A stretch of DNA of 64,000 nt from an uncultured bacterium (GTDB taxonomy: Bacteria > Fidelibacterota > UBA2242 > JAFGTP01): the NCBI GenBank assembly GCA_964640055.1, contig CAZXFH010000001.1, positions 6,744 through 70,743 on the forward strand. Reading direction: 5' to 3'. Shown piece after piece: positions 3,954 to 17,532 of the stretch. The notes below the pieces were generated by a model, which was not told where the DNA came from, ran no database searches, and saw nothing but the letters and a program-made list of their open reading frames with translations. The position numbers were made by a program, and so were the translations under genes. Every line of letters starts with the position of its first letter. The first letter of the stretch is position 1.

Positions 3954-5290
3954 TGCCAATTAAGATTCCGTTCTGGGGAGAAAAAATCAGTATTAATCTT
4001 CCCCAAAAAAATATAGGTGAAATAGTATATCCTAACCGGGTTGATTCGGAACCGGAAAGACAGGTAGTACTGGAATCACTCAAGAATCCGGTTGGCGCTC
4101 CGACTTTAGACAAATTTATCAAGGGAGAAGACCGGATATTATTCATCGTGAATGACGCCACCCGCCCCACGCCCACTGCCAGAATACTGGACCTTCTCTG
4201 GGATAAATTAAAGCATAAAAACATAAAATTTTTAATTGCTACGGGCATGCACCGGGAACCAACCCCGGATGAATACAGGGAAATCTTCGGTGAACGTTAT
4301 CCAATTTTAAAAAATCAGGTTTATTCCCATAACGCTCATGATGATGATCAGAATATTCACCTTGGGAAAACTGATCAGGGATCAGAACTATACTTTAACA
4401 AGCTCGTGGTAGAGACAAAAAAAATAATCTACCTGACTTCAGTTGAACCACATTATTTTGCCGGTTATACTGGTGGCGCAAAATCATTTTTACCGGGCGT
4501 GGCGGGCTATAGAACCATTACTCATAATCATGAATTGGCGCTAAAATTTTCAGCCCGGGCTCTGGAAGTCGAAAATAATCCCGTACGTAAAGATATTGCA
4601 GAAGCTTTCGTCCTTGTCTCCCAAAATAAACAAATCTTTGGTATCCAAACCGTTTTAGATAAAGATCATCGCGTTTATTACTGTGCCTGCGGGGATACCC
4701 ACAAATCTTTTGAGCTGGCTTGTGAAAAAGCCAAAGATGTCTTTTCAGTGGAAATTAAAGATAAAACTGACATAGTAGTAGCGGTTGCCCCCTATCCCAT
4801 GGATATTGATCTCTATCAATCCCAGAAAGCAATTGATAACGCCAAATTGGCCCTTAATGAAAACGGTATTCTCATTCTGGTTTCCAGTTGTCGAAAAGGG
4901 GTGGGTGACGATACTTTTGTAAAGCTGCTCAGTCAATCCAGTAATCCTGATGAAGCACTTAAAAAAATCTCTAAAGGCTATCAATTCGGTTTCCATAAAG
5001 CCTCAAAAATGGCAGAAATTATGAAATGGGCCTCAATATGGGCCTTCACCCGTTTGAATCACAATGTCCTGCAGAATATGTTCATTCAAAAATACACTTC
5101 CCTGCAAGATGCCATCGATGAGGCTCTCCAAAATAAGGGGGATGAAAGAATTCTTTTTCTGATGGATGCCAGTCTGACAGTTCCCAGAGTTGCTGACCGT
5201 CTCTTGCATAAACGCCGCTTTATACACGGACCGATGGAGAGTGAGTATGACTATAGAGATGTAACCTTGGACAATTTTTTTGCAGATTAA
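3953..5290 (+). CDS. larA: LarA-family nickel-pincer-nucleotide-dependent 2-hydroxyacid racemase/epimerase (lactate racemase-like)
   Basis: Motifs NDATRPTPT, ATGMHR, EPHYFAGYTGGAKS (the NPN-tethering Lys), HNH and YQSQKA match LarA signatures. The start overlaps the mdh stop (taATG). Confidence 0.75.
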   Translation: MPIKIPFWGEKISINLPQKNIGEIVYPNRVDSEPERQVVLESLKNPVGAPTLDKFIKGEDRILFIVNDATRPTPTARILDLLWDKLKHKNIKFLIATGMHREPTPDEYREIFGERYPILKNQVYSHNAHDDDQNIHLGKTDQGSELYFNKLVVETKKIIYLTSVEPHYFAGYTGGAKSFLPGVAGYRTITHNHELALKFSARALEVENNPVRKDIAEAFVLVSQNKQIFGIQTVLDKDHRVYYCACGDTHKSFELACEKAKDVFSVEIKDKTDIVVAVAPYPMDIDLYQSQKAIDNAKLALNENGILILVSSCRKGVGDDTFVKLLSQSSNPDEALKKISKGYQFGFHKASKMAEIMKWASIWAFTRLNHNVLQNMFIQKYTSLQDAIDEALQNKGDERILFLMDASLTVPRVADRLLHKRRFIHGPMESEYDYRDVTLDNFFAD

Positions 5291-10185: not shown

Positions 10186-11913
10186 ATGTCAAGCTTACCA
10201 AGTTATCAATTTTATGATGACATAAAAGAAATGTCACCTCCACGGGCAATCGCAGAAACGATCATGTTAAATCCTAAGATACGTAAAGTCACTCCGGCAG
10301 AGGCCTATGAGATGGCCTTGAAACAGCCAGGCATTGCCGTAACCGATCTTGACATCTATCCACCTTTTGCAGAAAAATTAGGCCTACCTCACGGTTCGAA
10401 AGTACTCAATGATTGTCATGGAAAAATTATTGGACGCACAGCAAAAGCACGTCGCTTTTATAATCGTATCTCAGAAAGTGAAAAGCACAAAGTAGAGGGT
10501 GATTTACGGGAGGCGGTCTATCAGATAGAACATTACGAGCTGATTAAAGCCGAAGCGGTCCTGGGTCTTGATCCCGATTTGATGCTGAAAGCCACTTTTA
10601 TTACAACTGCCGGCGATGCCAACAATATGTTCAACTGGTTGACTAATTTCGCACCTTTTGACCTGATGGCTGAAAAATATGCAAATAGTAATCCCTTACC
10701 TATTCAGGACATTATTATAGTGGCCTTTAATGATTGGACCTGCGAAGATCCTTATTACCATAATGTAGGCGCCCCCCAATTAGCACTAGTCGATGAAAAA
10801 CATAATGTGATCTTTAACTTGGGAATGCGTTATTTTGGTGAACGTAAAAAAGGCACCCTCACCCTGGCCTGGACATCAGGAATGCGTCTGGGAATGGCCG
10901 CCTGTCATGGCGGAATAAAAGAAATCGACTTTTCTGACTGTGCGCCCCAGCATAAACAGCTGGGTAAGAAATCTATTGCCTTTTTCGGCCTGTCAGGAAC
11001 GGGTAAATCCTCACACACTAATTCACCGGATAACGGAGGTACATTACCCGAAGGATTTAAAAAAGCGGTTTTACATGATGATGCCTTCCAGATTGATCCG
11101 AAGGATAAAGTCTGCCGTGTCTGGGAACCATCTCTATTCGATAAAACCGACAGTCGCGGACTCGAACATCCGGAATGGAAATATGCGCTGGCCTTGATGA
11201 ATCATGCCCTTTTAGAAGTGAATGATACCCTCCTACCCCTTGGACTGGATGTGCGGCAAGGTAACGGTCGCGCCTTGTTCGATAGAGACCTGCTAGGTAA
11301 ATGGGTTAACAAATGTACTTTCCCGACTGCCTTAGCTTGGCTAATGAAAGATACTGTTCTACCACCAGTGATCAAATATAATAATAAATACCTGGCGGTG
11401 GCGATGGGTGCTGCTCTGATCACCAAGCGAACCCGGGCTGAAAACGTTACCGAAGAAGAACTTAATAAATTGGTGTTCGAACCTTTTGCCAATCCTTTCC
11501 GAGTTTACGAACTATATAAAGATGTGGAAGCTTTTATAAAGGTCCTGGAAACCGGTGCGGACTGTTACACCTTCAATTCATCCGGTTTCTGGAAGTATTC
11601 AGATCATGATCTGGATGACATTAAACTCCAAACCTCATTGACTATTCAGACAGGCATTCTTACGGATCAATTAGAATGGGAAGATTGGGATCTCCTACCC
11701 GGAGCCATGATTCCCACTAAAGACAGTATTGACCAGCTCATTCCGGGATATTATGAAAAATATCATCCCCGAGATCGAAAACATATGAATATATACATTA
11801 ATACCCTCAAAGACCGTTTTAAACAGCGTCAAGACTTCCTGAAATCCTCTGATCTTAGCACAAAGCCAAAACTGCTGGAAAAATTAGCGGATGCCCTTAA
11901 AATCAAAGCATAA
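10186..11913 (+). CDS. pckA: phosphoenolpyruvate carboxykinase (ATP), divergent
   Basis: Kinase-1a FFGLSGTGKSS and YFGERKKG (PEPCK Y-GE-KKG) motifs. AGGGGG Shine-Dalgarno. Confidence 0.65.
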   Translation: MSSLPSYQFYDDIKEMSPPRAIAETIMLNPKIRKVTPAEAYEMALKQPGIAVTDLDIYPPFAEKLGLPHGSKVLNDCHGKIIGRTAKARRFYNRISESEKHKVEGDLREAVYQIEHYELIKAEAVLGLDPDLMLKATFITTAGDANNMFNWLTNFAPFDLMAEKYANSNPLPIQDIIIVAFNDWTCEDPYYHNVGAPQLALVDEKHNVIFNLGMRYFGERKKGTLTLAWTSGMRLGMAACHGGIKEIDFSDCAPQHKQLGKKSIAFFGLSGTGKSSHTNSPDNGGTLPEGFKKAVLHDDAFQIDPKDKVCRVWEPSLFDKTDSRGLEHPEWKYALALMNHALLEVNDTLLPLGLDVRQGNGRALFDRDLLGKWVNKCTFPTALAWLMKDTVLPPVIKYNNKYLAVAMGAALITKRTRAENVTEEELNKLVFEPFANPFRVYELYKDVEAFIKVLETGADCYTFNSSGFWKYSDHDLDDIKLQTSLTIQTGILTDQLEWEDWDLLPGAMIPTKDSIDQLIPGYYEKYHPRDRKHMNIYINTLKDRFKQRQDFLKSSDLSTKPKLLEKLADALKIKA

Positions 11914-12206: not shown

Positions 12207-13508
12207 ATGTCGACACTAAGAACCAAGCTAAGTAAGCAGATTCCCGCAACCCGTAAAAAAATCCGTAAAGTCGTTAAAGCACACAAGGATGTGATTGTCA
12301 GCACGGTTAATGTAAAGCAGGTCTACGGTGGCATGCGGGGTGTAGTGGGTTTGGTCTGCAACACTTCCTATGTTGATCCCCATCAGGGTTTGATTATTAG
12401 GGGCATACCGGTTAATGATTTGACCGATAAATTGCCTGAAGAAGTCTTTTTCCTTTTGTCAACCGGTGATCTACCGTCAAAAAATGATTTAAAGGATCTT
12501 CAAGAGGAGCTGAATCTGCGTGCAGAAGTACCGGATCATGTCTGGGATATCTTACTTGCCATGCCCCGGGATTCCCATCCTATGACAATGCTGAGTACGG
12601 CTATTTTGGCTTTAGAAAATGGCTCTATTTTCAAAGAAAAATATTCAGCCGGATTAAGAAAAGCTGATTTTTGGGAAGCGACCCTTGATGACTGTTTAGA
12701 ATTAATCGGGAAATTACCTTCTATCGCCGCCGGTATTTACCGGATCCGTTTTGCCAAGGGTGAACTGATTCCCTATGACCCCTCCCTGGATTGGGGTGCT
12801 AACTATGCCCATATGTTAGGCATACCTGATCCCAATGGTGAATTTGCGGATTTAATGCGTTTATATCTAGTCCTCCATTGTGACCATGAAGGGGGTAATG
12901 TGAGTGCCTTTACTTCCCAGGTCGTCAACTCAGCCTTATCCAATATCTATTATGCCACCTCGGCTGGTTTGAATGGTCTGGCCGGGCCTCTCCATGGATT
13001 AGCTAATCAGGAATGTTTAAAATTCGTCCATTCGATTCATGAAAAGTTCCATGGGGTACCTACTAAAAAAGAGTTGGCAGAATTTGTTTGGTCAACTTTA
13101 AACCTTGGTAAAGTAGTACCCGGATATGGTCATGCTGTGCTCCGGGCCACCGATCCCAGGTTTACGGCATTCCATAAATTTGGTGACCAATATTGTAAGG
13201 ATGATGATGTATTTCAAATTGTCAGTAGACTATTTGAAATCGTACCCGGAATATTAAAAGAATACGGTGGCGGTAAAGTTGCAGATCCCTATCCCAATGT
13301 AGATGCTATCTCCGGATGCTTGTTACATCATTATGGATTGACCATGTTCGACTATTACACGGTTCTTTTTGGGGTATCCCGCATTTTGGGCTTTTGTGCT
13401 CAGGCGATTCTGGCCCGCGGATTACAAGCACCTATTATCAGGCCAAAAACAGTAACCAATGAATGGATCGAAGAAAAAATAAAAGAGGCAACCAAAAAGA
13501 AAAAATAA
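12207..13508 (+). CDS. gltA: citrate synthase, eukaryote/mitochondrial-like type I
   Basis: VYGGMRG..., GYGHAVLRATDPR and HCDHEGGNVSA motifs. GGGGAGG Shine-Dalgarno. Confidence 0.85.
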   Translation: MSTLRTKLSKQIPATRKKIRKVVKAHKDVIVSTVNVKQVYGGMRGVVGLVCNTSYVDPHQGLIIRGIPVNDLTDKLPEEVFFLLSTGDLPSKNDLKDLQEELNLRAEVPDHVWDILLAMPRDSHPMTMLSTAILALENGSIFKEKYSAGLRKADFWEATLDDCLELIGKLPSIAAGIYRIRFAKGELIPYDPSLDWGANYAHMLGIPDPNGEFADLMRLYLVLHCDHEGGNVSAFTSQVVNSALSNIYYATSAGLNGLAGPLHGLANQECLKFVHSIHEKFHGVPTKKELAEFVWSTLNLGKVVPGYGHAVLRATDPRFTAFHKFGDQYCKDDDVFQIVSRLFEIVPGILKEYGGGKVADPYPNVDAISGCLLHHYGLTMFDYYTVLFGVSRILGFCAQAILARGLQAPIIRPKTVTNEWIEEKIKEATKKKK

Positions 13509-13530
13509 AGGAAAGGAAAAGCAAACCGCT

Positions 13531-15465
13531 ATGCCCCAAAATCTTGTGCAAAAAATTCTGGCGGCCCATCGGGTATCCGGTAAACTAAAGGTTGACGAAA
13601 CCATTGGTATAAAAATAGACCAAACTCTCACTCAGGATGCCACTGGTACAATGGCCTATCTGGAATTCGAAGCCATGAACATATCTGAAATAAAGACGGA
13701 ATTATCAGTCAGTTATGTTGATCACAACACCATACAAATAGGATTTGAAAACGCCGATGATCACCGCTATTTAATGTCTGTTGCTGAAAAATATGGTATA
13801 TATTATTCTAAAGCCGGTAATGGGATTTGCCACCAGGTACATTTGGAAAGATTTGGTCTGCCTGGAAAAACCTTATTAGGCTCAGACAGTCATACACCCA
13901 CGGGTGGTGGTATCGGTATGTTGGCCATTGGTGCCGGAGGACTGGATGTGGCCTGTGCCCTGGCGGGCTTGCCCTTTTACATGCCCTATCCCAAAGTATT
14001 AAATGTCCGCCTTACCGGTCAATTACAACCCTGGGTTACTGCCAAAGATATTATTCTGTATTTACTGGAATTACTTTCTACCAAGGGCAATGTAGGCTGG
14101 ATGATTGAATTTAGTGGCCCGGGGGTAAAAACGCTTAGTGTCCCCGAACGGGCCACCATAACAAATATGGGAGCTGAGCTGGGCGTAACGTGTTCCTTGT
14201 TTCCCAGTGATGAAATTACCCGGGCTTTTCTTGAAGCCCAGGAACGGGAGACGGGATGGCGAGCCCTTCAGGCCGACCCGGGCGCCAATTATGACCGTAC
14301 TATTGAAATCGATTTAAGTACACTCGAACCACGATTAGCTACCCCACACAGCCCGGGTAACATAAGCTTGGTAAAAAACCTTGCTGGTAAAAAAGTAGAT
14401 CAGGTTTGCATTGGTAGTTGTACTAACTCATCCTATAAAGATTTAATGACCGTTGCCGAAATGGTACGGGATAAAACTTTACCGGAGCATGTTAGCTTTA
14501 TTGTAGCGCCTGGATCCCGACAGGTATTTGATATGATCGTCAGAGATGGCGGTATGTCCAGCCTGATAGGCTTCGGCGCTCGTATTATGGAGTCCACCTG
14601 CGGTTTTTGTATCGGTAATGGACAAGCGCCAGGTACCGATGCTATATCCATTCGCACCAATAACCGTAATTTTAAAGGGCGTTCTGGTAATCCCAATGCA
14701 CAGGTCTTTTTAGCCAGCCCGGAAACCGCCGCCGCCTGCGCAATTCAGGGTGCTATCACCGATCCTCGCGATATGGGGAGGCCTCCCAAAATAGAAATAC
14801 CGCACAAATTTACCATTGATGATAGTATGATTCTGTATACCCAGAACAAAAATCAGGACATTCAACGGGGACCTAATATCGGGGATCCACCTAAAAATGA
14901 GCCACTCCCTTCTATTTTATCCGGAGAAATTGCGCTTAAAGTAGGCGATAAAATCACTACCGATCATATTATGCCTGCAGGTAATCGCCTAAAATACCGC
15001 TCTAATATACCCAAATATTCCGACTTTGTGTTCGAACCTATCGATACCACCTTTCCGGATCGCTGTTTAGAAAACAAAAGCGCCGGACAAGCCAATTTTA
15101 TCGTAGCGGGTTGGAGTTATGGACAAGGATCATCGCGGGAACATGCCGCTATATGTCCGGCTTATTTAGGCGTAAAAGCAGTTATTGCCAAGTCCATCGA
15201 AAGGATCCATCGTTCTAATCTAATTAACTTCGGTATTATACCCATAATACTAACCCATGAAGAGGACTATGACCAACTTGAACAAGCAGAAAAACTGGCT
15301 ATCCCTGATATTAAACAATATATAAAAGATAAAGACCTTTTAACCATTAAGAATCTGGATAAGGGATTGGAAATTCAGGTTCATCTGGAGCTGACTTCTC
15401 GGGAACGAGACATCCTGTTGATCGGTGGTTTATTAAATCATATTCGGAAACAGGCCAAGCAATAA
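13531..15465 (+). CDS. acn: aconitate hydratase (aconitase family, 644 aa)
   Basis: GSCTNSSYKDL, SGNRNFKGR and CGFCIGNGQ motifs. Context is citrate synthase then IDH. Confidence 0.75.
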   Translation: MPQNLVQKILAAHRVSGKLKVDETIGIKIDQTLTQDATGTMAYLEFEAMNISEIKTELSVSYVDHNTIQIGFENADDHRYLMSVAEKYGIYYSKAGNGICHQVHLERFGLPGKTLLGSDSHTPTGGGIGMLAIGAGGLDVACALAGLPFYMPYPKVLNVRLTGQLQPWVTAKDIILYLLELLSTKGNVGWMIEFSGPGVKTLSVPERATITNMGAELGVTCSLFPSDEITRAFLEAQERETGWRALQADPGANYDRTIEIDLSTLEPRLATPHSPGNISLVKNLAGKKVDQVCIGSCTNSSYKDLMTVAEMVRDKTLPEHVSFIVAPGSRQVFDMIVRDGGMSSLIGFGARIMESTCGFCIGNGQAPGTDAISIRTNNRNFKGRSGNPNAQVFLASPETAAACAIQGAITDPRDMGRPPKIEIPHKFTIDDSMILYTQNKNQDIQRGPNIGDPPKNEPLPSILSGEIALKVGDKITTDHIMPAGNRLKYRSNIPKYSDFVFEPIDTTFPDRCLENKSAGQANFIVAGWSYGQGSSREHAAICPAYLGVKAVIAKSIERIHRSNLINFGIIPIILTHEEDYDQLEQAEKLAIPDIKQYIKDKDLLTIKNLDKGLEIQVHLELTSRERDILLIGGLLNHIRKQAKQ

Positions 15466-15498
15466 TTATAATCATCATAGGGACTGGAAGGAGCTATT

Positions 15499-16845
15499 AT
15501 GACCTTTAAGAAGTTACAGGAACCCCAGGAGGGTACCAGGATAACCATCCAAAATGGTACAGTTGTAACGCCGGATAATCCCATTATTCCGTTTATCGAA
15601 GGAGATGGGATCGGACCGGATATCTGGCGCGCCACACGAAATATCGTCGATGCGGCGGTCAATAAAATGTACCAGGAACAAAAGAAAATTATCTGGTTTC
15701 AAATTCATGCGGGGCTCTCCGCCCTAAAAAATTATGGTAACGACGATGTCCTACCGGACGATACAATTGAGGCTATTAAAAATTATAAGATTGCAATTAA
15801 AGGGCCTTTAACTACACCCGTTGGTAGATTCGCCTATGTCTGTTTAAAATGTGCTAAAGAACAAGACGGGGAGAATGACAAACGTCCGGTTAAGTGTATT
15901 AAGTGTGGTTCAGAATTTGTAACCCCGCGTTTCCGTTCACTAAATGTTGGTTTGCGTCAAATATTAGATCTGTATGCCTGTGTCCGTCCAGTGCGCTGGT
16001 ACCGCGGCGTTCCCTGTCCGGTAAAACATCCCGAAAAGCTGGATGTGGTCGTATTCAGGGAAAATACAGAAGATGTTTATGCTGGTATTGAATTTGAAGA
16101 AGGATCAAATGAAGCCTTAAAAATCATTGATTTTTTACATCAAGAAATGAATTCTGTAATTTTAAAAGATAGTGGAATTGGAATAAAACCAATTTCTGTG
16201 ACTCGTACAAAACGACTGGTACGCAAAGCGATTGATTATGCCATTGCGCATCATAAACCCAATGTTACGCTCGTCCATAAAGGTAATATTATGAAATTTA
16301 CAGAGGGTGCCTTTCGGGATTGGGGATATGATGTGGCTAAAACTGAGTACCGGGATCAAATTATTACGGAAAATGAACTATGGGATGAATGCAACGGTCA
16401 AATCCCTCAGGGAAAAATCCTGCTTAAAGATAGAATTGCCGATCAGATGTTTCAACAAGTTTTACTGCGTCCGGATGAATACAGTGTAATCGCAACACCC
16501 AATCTAAATGGTGACTATCTATCAGATGCCTGTGCCGCTCAGGTGGGCGGCCTGGGGATTGCTCCGGGTGCTAACCTGGGTGATAAAATTGCCTTGTTCG
16601 AAGCCACGCATGGTACCGCACCTAAATATACTGGCATGGACAAAGTCAATCCTAGTTCGCTGATCCTTTCCAGTGTCATGATGCTGAATCATATCGGTTG
16701 GAGAGAAGCGGCTCAGGTTATCGAAACTGCCTTGGAAACCACTATTTCAAATAAGACAGTAACCTATGATTTGGAACGTCAAATGACCGGTGCTGTAAAA
16801 CTACAGACCTCTGAATTTAGCCAACAGATTATCGAAAACATGTAG
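15499..16845 (+). CDS. icd: NADP-dependent isocitrate dehydrogenase (prokaryotic Icd type) with an inserted CxxC-x13-CxxC element
   Basis: Collinear with Icd throughout ([53 protein letters not shown]). About 30 extra residues follow KGPLTTPVG. Confidence 0.85.
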
Positions 16846-16860
16846 ATGTGGGAGATTATT

Positions 16861-17532
16861 ATGAAATCCTTGGACAAACTTCTTTCGAAAGCAGAGCAGC
16901 ATAAAATGGAGGGCCGCCTTGATGAGGCTCTAACACTGTATGAAAATATCATCAAAGAGAACCCAGGAAATATTCCCACCTTGATGAATTTGGGCAATCT
17001 ATATTACATATCCGGTGATTTAAAAAAATCCATTCATGCCTATCAGGAAGTACTCAATTTGAAACCCAAGTTCAGCTTCGCTCTCTATAAATTAGGGGTG
17101 GCTTATTATCGGGCAGCCCATTTCAGGGAAGCTATTGAAACGCTCCATAAAGTCTTGAAAGTCGATCCGGAATTATATATGTCTCATTATTGGTTAGGAT
17201 TGTCATATTATCACATTGGCAAGGCTGAAAAAAGTGTGGAATCCTACCAAAACCTATTAAAAGAAAGTAAAGAGGTTTTCCTGGGACATTATTATTTAGC
17301 CATGGCTCTGAAAGCCTCCGGAAAGTACCGGGAAGCCAAACAGCATTTGGAAAAACTTATCGAAGACAATCCCAAGCACAGTTCGGCCCATTACCATTTA
17401 GGCGGGGTCTATATGGCGATCCATGCTATGGACGATGCTATCAAAATGTTTAAGAAGGTACTTGAACTGGATCCTGAACATACGGGCGCTGCTAACAAAC
17501 TGGAATATCTGACCAATGTTCCGCCTATTTAA
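16861..17532 (+). CDS. TPR-repeat protein
   Basis: Repeated TPR-like A..Y...G.Y.EA helices. Start chosen at MKSLDKL with a GGGAG Shine-Dalgarno; the ORF-track ATG at 16846 overlaps the icd stop. Confidence 0.6.
   Translation: MKSLDKLLSKAEQHKMEGRLDEALTLYENIIKENPGNIPTLMNLGNLYYISGDLKKSIHAYQEVLNLKPKFSFALYKLGVAYYRAAHFREAIETLHKVLKVDPELYMSHYWLGLSYYHIGKAEKSVESYQNLLKESKEVFLGHYYLAMALKASGKYREAKQHLEKLIEDNPKHSSAHYHLGGVYMAIHAMDDAIKMFKKVLELDPEHTGAANKLEYLTNVPPI

Follow-up and report, generated by a model that had tools for sequence, protein, structure and literature searches.

A four-cysteine, zinc-ribbon-like module at the phosphorylation loop of isocitrate dehydrogenase from uncultured bacteria

Isocitrate dehydrogenase (Icd) is among the best-studied enzymes with respect to active-site regulation, and its Ser113 loop is a textbook case. 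In E. coli Icd, Ser113 lies in the phosphorylation (C-d) loop and represents the site phosphorylated by AceK. Structures of the E. coli and A. pernix enzymes in complex show the same loop bridging the NADP and isocitrate contacts (PMC6313988). Here, we analysed a stretch of 64,000 nucleotides from an uncultured bacterium of the Fidelibacterota (contig CAZXFH010000001.1, positions 6,744 to 70,743; hereafter the window), whose icd gene (15499..16845, + strand) encodes a 448-residue prokaryotic NADP-dependent isocitrate dehydrogenase of the type I homodimeric class hosting a four-cysteine (Cys4) module in the tip of this loop. Both the enzyme and this kind of small metal module are known, but joining them, and at this position, is apparently undescribed.

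The host enzyme and the position of its insert

The 15499-16845 open reading frame (ORF) can be assigned as a full-length prokaryotic NADP-dependent Icd of the TIGR00183 type I family, scoring 650.5 bits against a TIGR00183 cutoff of 567.3 although the match is split at the insert, and matching Pfam Iso_dh (E 1.5e-87) with a break at the same site. Its nearest solved relatives are the enzymes of A. fulgidus (2iv0) and E. coli (1ai2). Compared with such E. coli-type NADP-dependent Icds (PDB 1ai2/3icd; A. fulgidus 2iv0), the window enzyme shares about 53-59% identity, the same fold and the same key residues, and an AlphaFold2 (AF2) model of the full-length protein (mean predicted local distance difference test score, pLDDT, 88.5) superposes on solved isocitrate dehydrogenases with a template modelling (TM) score of 0.84-0.87. 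The residues for substrate, metal and catalysis are all kept (S147, N149, R153, R163, R187, Y194, K261, D315, D339 and D343, the counterparts of S113, N115, R119, R129, R153, Y160, K230, D283, D307 and D311 in E. coli), as are the NADP-specificity positions K376, Y377, V383, Y423 and R427, the E. coli determinants of which we take to be K344, Y345, V351, Y391 and R395. Both sets are invariant in 70 homologues. Judged by these residues, the window Icd would be an ordinary NADP-dependent enzyme catalytically, with an intact active site, and presumably represents the usual 2-oxoglutarate-forming Icd of its carriers.

The difference from the E. coli-type enzymes lies at the C-d loop, where a G108-G109-G110 tip is found in E. 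coli and the four-cysteine module in the window Icd. HMMER alignments to solved Icds were all split, with query pieces 1-109 and 145-448 aligned to E. coli residues 4-108 and 111-416; G109-G110 of E. coli are thus replaced by 35 residues, a net gain of 33 amino acids. The module itself comprises 36 residues (amino acids 110-145; 15826..15933, + strand) and replaces the GG(I) tip of the loop. A sequence-only reading of this DNA had proposed an in-frame insertion of about 32 residues with two CxxC pairs in a CxxC-x13-CxxC arrangement. The in-frame insertion and the CxxC pairs stand; the spacer between the pairs is 14 residues, the four cysteines being C115, C118, C133 and C136 (CxxC-x14-CxxC). 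Knuckle 1 (C115-L-K-C118; 15841..15852, + strand) contains C6 and C9 of the insert in the conserved context YVCLxC, and knuckle 2 (C133-I-K-C136; 15895..15906, + strand) contains C24 and C27 in the conserved context RPxxCxKCGS. A pattern of the form CxxC-x5-25-CxxC arose in only 78 of 200,000 shuffles of the window Icd (4e-4).

The return to the Icd core is marked by R144-F145-R146-S147 (15928..15939, + strand), as delimited by the alignment to E. coli, group-specific positions and invariant columns. R144 is restricted to insert-bearing Icds, the position being mostly Gly elsewhere. The insert ends at F145, so that the end at 15935 given by the sequence-only reading falls within the R146 codon. 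Its last residue lies two residues ahead of S147, which sits in an RSLNV motif and is equivalent to E. coli Ser113, the isocitrate ligand and AceK phosphosite. The sequence-only reading had placed the insert near the region of regulatory phosphorylation; it occupies the tip of the phosphorylation loop, in place of G109-G110.

Conservation, distribution and origin of the insert

An insert of 36 or 37 residues was found at the same site in 120 of the 120 best homologues (68-100% identity). Scanning one genome per GTDB species gave 82 confirmed loci, and hence at least 82 species with the insert. Eighty loci were retained for analysis. Each of them contains an icd homologue by local BLAST, and in 68 the insert could be read within the frame of icd. 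The four cysteines are invariant in all 68 distinct nucleotide versions of the insert, with TGC and TGT used at the four positions in ratios of 36/32, 23/45, 37/31 and 46/22. Residues V5, E12, P21 and F36 of the insert are likewise unchanging across these versions while their codons vary freely. The mean majority-residue frequency is 0.79 in the insert versus 0.83 in the rest of the enzyme, and the G+C content of the insert (0.38-0.42) is like that of its surroundings. This pattern of synonymous variation points to strong purifying selection on the insert.

These observations bear on whether the insert could stem from a chimeric assembly, a frameshift or a neutral expansion of the loop, the first of which had been raised by the sequence-only reading. 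Nothing was found in favour of such an origin, which comes into question only because the window is one single sequence. Given an insert present in the 120 best homologues and 80 GTDB loci, with cysteines invariant over 68 DNA versions and matching G+C, an assembly chimera or sequencing artefact is excluded. As a whole, an origin in artefact or neutral junk has a probability next to nil and is already refuted by more than 240 independent sequences, purifying selection, matching composition and a confident AF2 prediction. Two other explanations were tried and rejected. One was an overlapping ORF; the other was an intein or mobile element, since the insert is only 36 residues long, is shared by all members of one monophyletic clade and resembles its surroundings in composition (flanking repeats were not explicitly searched). 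One locus departs from the general pattern: in an Elusimicrobia metagenome-assembled genome (MAG; JACRNU010000014.1, locus positions ~4001-4072), unrelated residues (PRRRFRLSRSSGSQ...) stand in place of knuckle 1 and knuckle 2 is intact. This disruption looks like a frameshift, from either a pseudogene or an assembly error.

All 80 GTDB loci come from MAGs or other genomes of uncultured bacteria and carry the labels of eight named phyla: Neomarinimicrobiota/Marinimicrobia, Cloacimonadota, KSB1, Elusimicrobiota, Armatimonadota, Stahlbacteria, Caldithrix and Fibrobacterota. Whether the insert is specific to one lineage had been left to a multiple alignment with homologues, and the alignment showed it to be common to a whole Icd clade spread over several phyla. 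A second length variant was first met in a search of representatives clustered at 50% identity, where one protein (P0125) carried, at this very position of Icd, an insert of 32 residues. Because this search merges the insert clade into insert-less representatives, it cannot be used to count insert-bearing clusters. The consensus of variant 2 is EETHVCLHCAHQQYHxGxCDKCGKDDGVTERF, a CxxC-x9-CxxC arrangement found in the same or a close form in the 119 closest homologues of P0125 (P0271-P0389), and its four cysteines are invariant in 24 aligned representative inserts. The named carriers are MAGs of Gemmatimonadota, Acidobacteriota/Holophagae, Eisenbacteria, Krumholzibacteriia and Myxococcota; two variant-2 icd loci were retrieved (L081, 5001-6344; L082, 5001-6350). 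With both variants taken together, more than 240 insert-bearing sequences from different assemblies were sampled, and the uncultured bacteria that share the insert form of Icd number in the hundreds and belong to a dozen phyla or more.

Aligning the two variants by hhalign gave a probability of 97.6% (E 3e-12), with the second CxxC pairs aligned, and they differ chiefly by a five-residue deletion in the inter-knuckle loop. The two inserts are homologous, and define one Icd subfamily with two length variants. Neighbour-joining (NJ) trees were built with the insert columns removed. The Icds with a 36-residue insert form a clade in 80 of 100 and in 59 of 60 bootstraps, and the insert-less representatives most similar to this clade (P0121 and P0124) share about 61-62% identity with it. 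Variant-2 proteins show a mean identity of 58% to variant 1, versus at most 53% to any insert-less representative. When variant 2 was represented by one sequence only, the NJ tree kept the variants apart (1/100), while one with 17 variant-2 sequences joined them in the best tree with weak support (19/60). The most economical explanation is that the insert was gained once, long ago, and then diverged, mainly because the inserts are homologous by hhalign, and the wide phylum spread implies either great age or lateral transfer.

The insert is present in no solved Icd. In the source annotations, the homologues are named plainly as "NADP-dependent isocitrate dehydrogenase" or "isocitrate/isopropylmalate family dehydrogenase", and no curated family model describes the insert, the NCBIfam and Pfam matches merely being split there. 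No mention of a zinc ribbon, zinc site, CXXC or rubredoxin-like insert in Icd was found in the open-access literature searched, most subscription journals lying outside it.

Predicted structure and possible roles of the ribbon

AF2 models the insert confidently as a beta-ribbon, in answer to the structure prediction that had been proposed, with pLDDT values of 82, 90, 88, 94 and 86 for consecutive ten-residue blocks over residues 101-150. Strands are predicted at 113-115 (YVC) and 141-143 (VTP), with short bridges between them. We read this as an insert that is closed at its base by the pairing of its two ends and bears the knuckles at its distal end, an arrangement typical of a plug-in zinc ribbon. 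A Pfam scan of 40 insert sequences returned sub-threshold matches nearly all to zinc-ribbon and zinc-finger families. The most widely matched was Zn_ribbon_8 (29 of 40 inserts, E 6.5e-4), and Zn_ribbon_SprT was matched by 21 inserts, with the lowest listed E of 2.1e-4. No match reached its Pfam gathering score in the one member for which a full table with gathering scores was obtained. The folds closest to the isolated insert model are zinc sites, such as those of RPB12, eL40 and MCM, with weak similarity. Matches to C2H2 poly-zinc-finger structures in the PDB (E down to 1.6e-15) were rejected as additive low-complexity hits, the single-repeat i-Evalues being at least 0.1 and only a "GxxPxxCxxCG" linker plus knuckle being matched. 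A profile of the insert only (40 residues) run against an index of 5.8 billion proteins gave 37 word candidates, none of which scored, and this result says nothing on free-standing ribbons.

The sequence-only reading had likened the cysteine spacing to that of a rubredoxin or a zinc ribbon and had suggested a metal-binding module. The zinc-ribbon likeness accords with the weak Pfam and fold similarities, nearly all of which are to zinc ribbons, and the interpretation given by that reading is partly supported. The rubredoxin likeness does not hold in spacing or motif. A rubredoxin-type iron centre or an inter-subunit iron-sulfur cluster, serving electron transfer or the sensing of O2 or NO, could draw on the rubredoxin-like CxxCG form of knuckle 2, on weak profile matches in the PDB (rubredoxin and S27e at E 0.04-0.07, and rubredoxins overall at E 0.04-0.5, in a sequence search with the insert hidden Markov model) and on the sub-threshold match of 18 of the 40 inserts to PF0610, a "rubredoxin-like zinc beta-ribbon". 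However, rubredoxins have knuckles of the form CxxCG ... CPxCG about 29 residues apart around an aromatic core, and the spacer in the inserts is much shorter (14 or 9 residues); knuckle 1 is CLxCA, without the Gly; and Pfam Rubredoxin is absent among the matches listed. Furthermore, there is no flavin domain to couple hydride to one-electron transfer, and the nearest folds are zinc sites. We therefore regard an iron centre of this kind as very improbable. The insert would instead be a generic Cys4 zinc-ribbon-like module outside any curated family, and that it forms a Cys4 metal site is highly probable.

Comparing 33 insert-bearing with 49 insert-less Icds identified few positions outside the ribbon that are fixed in the former and rare in the latter, namely L73, L76 and T378, together with the junction residues R144 and F145 (E72, T75, A346, G110 and I111, respectively, in E. 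coli). T378 (16630-16632) adjoins the NADP-specificity pair K376-Y377. L73 and L76 (15715..15726, + strand) open helix b (residues 73-79 of the AF2 model) and are hydrophobic in 33 of 33 insert-bearing Icds sampled; in insert-less Icds, the E72 position is mostly E, D or Q and the T75 position is variable. From the topology, the start of helix b should adjoin the C-d loop at the C-terminal edge of the sheet. Two polar-to-leucine changes adjoining a module with many conserved residues of aromatic or aliphatic character (F111, Y113, V114, L116, F/W140 and F145) suggest that the ribbon docks on the L73/L76 patch rather than waving freely.

These features can be accommodated in a model to which we give an even prospect, in which a structural metal, probably zinc, holds a ribbon that stiffens and extends the active-site flap. 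Icd, encoded beside citrate synthase and aconitase, would serve the path to 2-oxoglutarate, and the flexible tri-glycine tip of its C-d loop would have been swapped for a small metal-binding Cys4 ribbon. The metal would most likely be structural Zn(II) with C115, C118, C133 and C136 as ligands. Antiparallel pairing of residues 113-115 with residues 141-143 would let the module plug into the loop with the core undisturbed, and the ribbon may pack on the subfamily-specific hydrophobic patch of L73 and L76. As T105/T106 correspond to nicotinamide-ribose contacts in E. coli and S147/N149 to isocitrate contacts, the loop bearing both pairs could become a larger and rigid flap where the active-site cleft opens. 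Likely effects would be a stabilised loop with altered cleft closure and substrate access, and phosphorylation of the AceK type would probably be sterically excluded. Such a structural role is the likeliest outcome.

The position of the insert also invites a different explanation, in which the Cys4-zinc site is labile to redox state or metal, and oxidation or loss of zinc unfolds the ribbon beside S147/N149 and lowers activity, an effect at this loop like that of AceK phosphorylation in E. coli. Redox sensing by zinc-CxxC centres is established in bacteria, the end of the insert is only two residues away from the Ser113 equivalent within the loop that serves as on/off control in E. coli, and many variant-2 inserts carry a fifth cysteine (GVCERF). 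By contrast, Cys4 ribbons in enzymes are mostly purely structural. The insert, going by phylum names alone, seems to span Cloacimonadota and Elusimicrobiota on the one hand and Gemmatimonadota and Acidobacteriota on the other, which differ greatly in oxygen lifestyle, and no thioredoxin-like or sensor gene adjoins icd in the window, the related loci or the variant-2 loci. A thiol switch is thus unlikely in our estimate.

Gene neighbourhood and comparison with known systems

In the window, icd is the third gene of a cluster that starts with citrate synthase (12207..13508, + strand; Pfam Citrate_synt, E 6e-96), followed by aconitase directly upstream of icd (13531..15465, + strand; Pfam Aconitase and Aconitase_C). 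An aconitase gene is adjacent to icd in 32 of the 80 related loci and a citrate synthase gene lies upstream in 21. A gene for a 228-residue tetratricopeptide repeat (TPR) protein (16846-17532, + strand) starts on the base after the icd stop, suggesting that the two may be translationally coupled. In 19 of the 80 loci, those most like the window and mostly labelled Cloacimonadota or Neomarinimicrobiota, icd is likewise followed by a homologous TPR ORF, and its product is a possible Icd partner. It was not found in the loci labelled Elusimicrobiota or Fibrobacterota or in the two variant-2 loci examined, which have unrelated neighbours. Besides the TPR gene, no neighbour tracks the insert in the loci examined, and none of the ten neighbours annotated in the window resembles aceK.

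This neighbourhood raises the possibility that the exposed ribbon is a docking module that brings the TPR protein, a metabolon partner (aconitase or citrate synthase) or some regulator to the active-site entrance. Macromolecular contacts are a frequent task of zinc ribbons, the nearest folds being RPB12, eL40 and MCM; the TPR gene lies directly behind icd and recurs in related loci; and E121, Q122 and R144 of the insert are invariant. However, the TPR neighbour is confined to the loci most like the window with no other neighbour tracking the insert, and a single partner surface conserved throughout is hard to reconcile with the ribbon's surface charge, basic in one variant (GKRPEKC) and acidic in the other (CDKCGKDDG). 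Recruitment of a partner is consequently a distinctly unlikely role. The broader proposition that the ribbon is a built-in regulatory device, in which either loss or oxidation of the Cys4 metal site or the binding of a partner gates the Icd active site, is one we hold to be rather unlikely.

When the gene order of window positions 12207-17532 was compared with that of 52 related loci (L001-L052), the order citrate synthase-aconitase-icd-TPR was observed in the window and in most loci labelled Cloacimonadota, with citrate synthases 72-80% identical. Loci labelled Marinimicrobia show the order aconitase-citrate synthase-icd, with citrate synthase about 50% identical, and some MAGs labelled Armatimonadota (L028 and L031) have the Cloacimonadota-type arrangement. 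On gene order and citrate synthase identity, the window would probably derive from a Cloacimonadota-like genome. Upstream of the cluster in the window are genes for malic enzyme and a NiFe-hydrogenase subunit. A 575-residue ORF (10186-11913, + strand) between malic enzyme and citrate synthase has a weak and partial match to Pfam PEPCK_ATP (E 7e-10, residues 102-304), and its product may be a divergent phosphoenolpyruvate carboxykinase-like protein.

A large and deep branch of Icd thus bears a conserved four-cysteine module on the Ser113 loop, and the insert can serve as a diagnostic sequence marker of an Icd subfamily in phyla for which MAGs are the only source on central metabolism. Such an enzyme would surprise a specialist in isocitrate dehydrogenases and is easy and cheap to test experimentally. 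Were the module regulatory, it would represent a new control mechanism at the branch point between tricarboxylic acid cycle, glyoxylate pathway and 2-oxoglutarate; were it a gating device, a hitherto unknown, widespread and kinase-independent control of flux at the isocitrate branch point would exist in at least a dozen mostly uncultured phyla. Were it purely structural, the parallel would be the zinc lid of adenylate kinase.

Several known systems can be set beside this locus. Type I Icds tolerate lineage-specific lengths, as seen in the 474-residue NF005610/PRK07362 model and the 423-residue B. subtilis enzyme (1hqs), and the two insert-less representatives closest to the clade, of 474 (P0121) and 423 (P0124) residues, differ in having no extra residues at the C-d loop. 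In E. coli-type Icds the surface on which AceK docks is the one that the insert alters in the window enzyme. The zinc-ribbon modules of other enzymes (the sirtuin zinc module, the knuckles of ValRS and class I aminoacyl-tRNA synthetases, the N-terminal zinc site of MCM, and DUF35) and the free ribbons RPB12 and eL40 are structurally nearest to the insert when it is modelled in isolation, and share with it two knuckles, a short beta-hairpin (predicted for the insert) and a presumed structural zinc. The zinc lid of Gram-positive adenylate kinases (Cys-X2-Cys-X16-Cys-X2-Cys/Asp) is similar in that a nucleotide-dependent enzyme carries a small pair of Cys4 knuckles within a flap that moves over its active site, in its lineage-dependent presence and in its spacing (x16, versus x14 or x9 in the Icd inserts). 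It differs in host fold and reaction, both unrelated, making the resemblance an analogy with no homology shown. Moreover, adenylate kinase has its lid even when the metal site is missing, whereas the module of Icd is an addition in its entirety.
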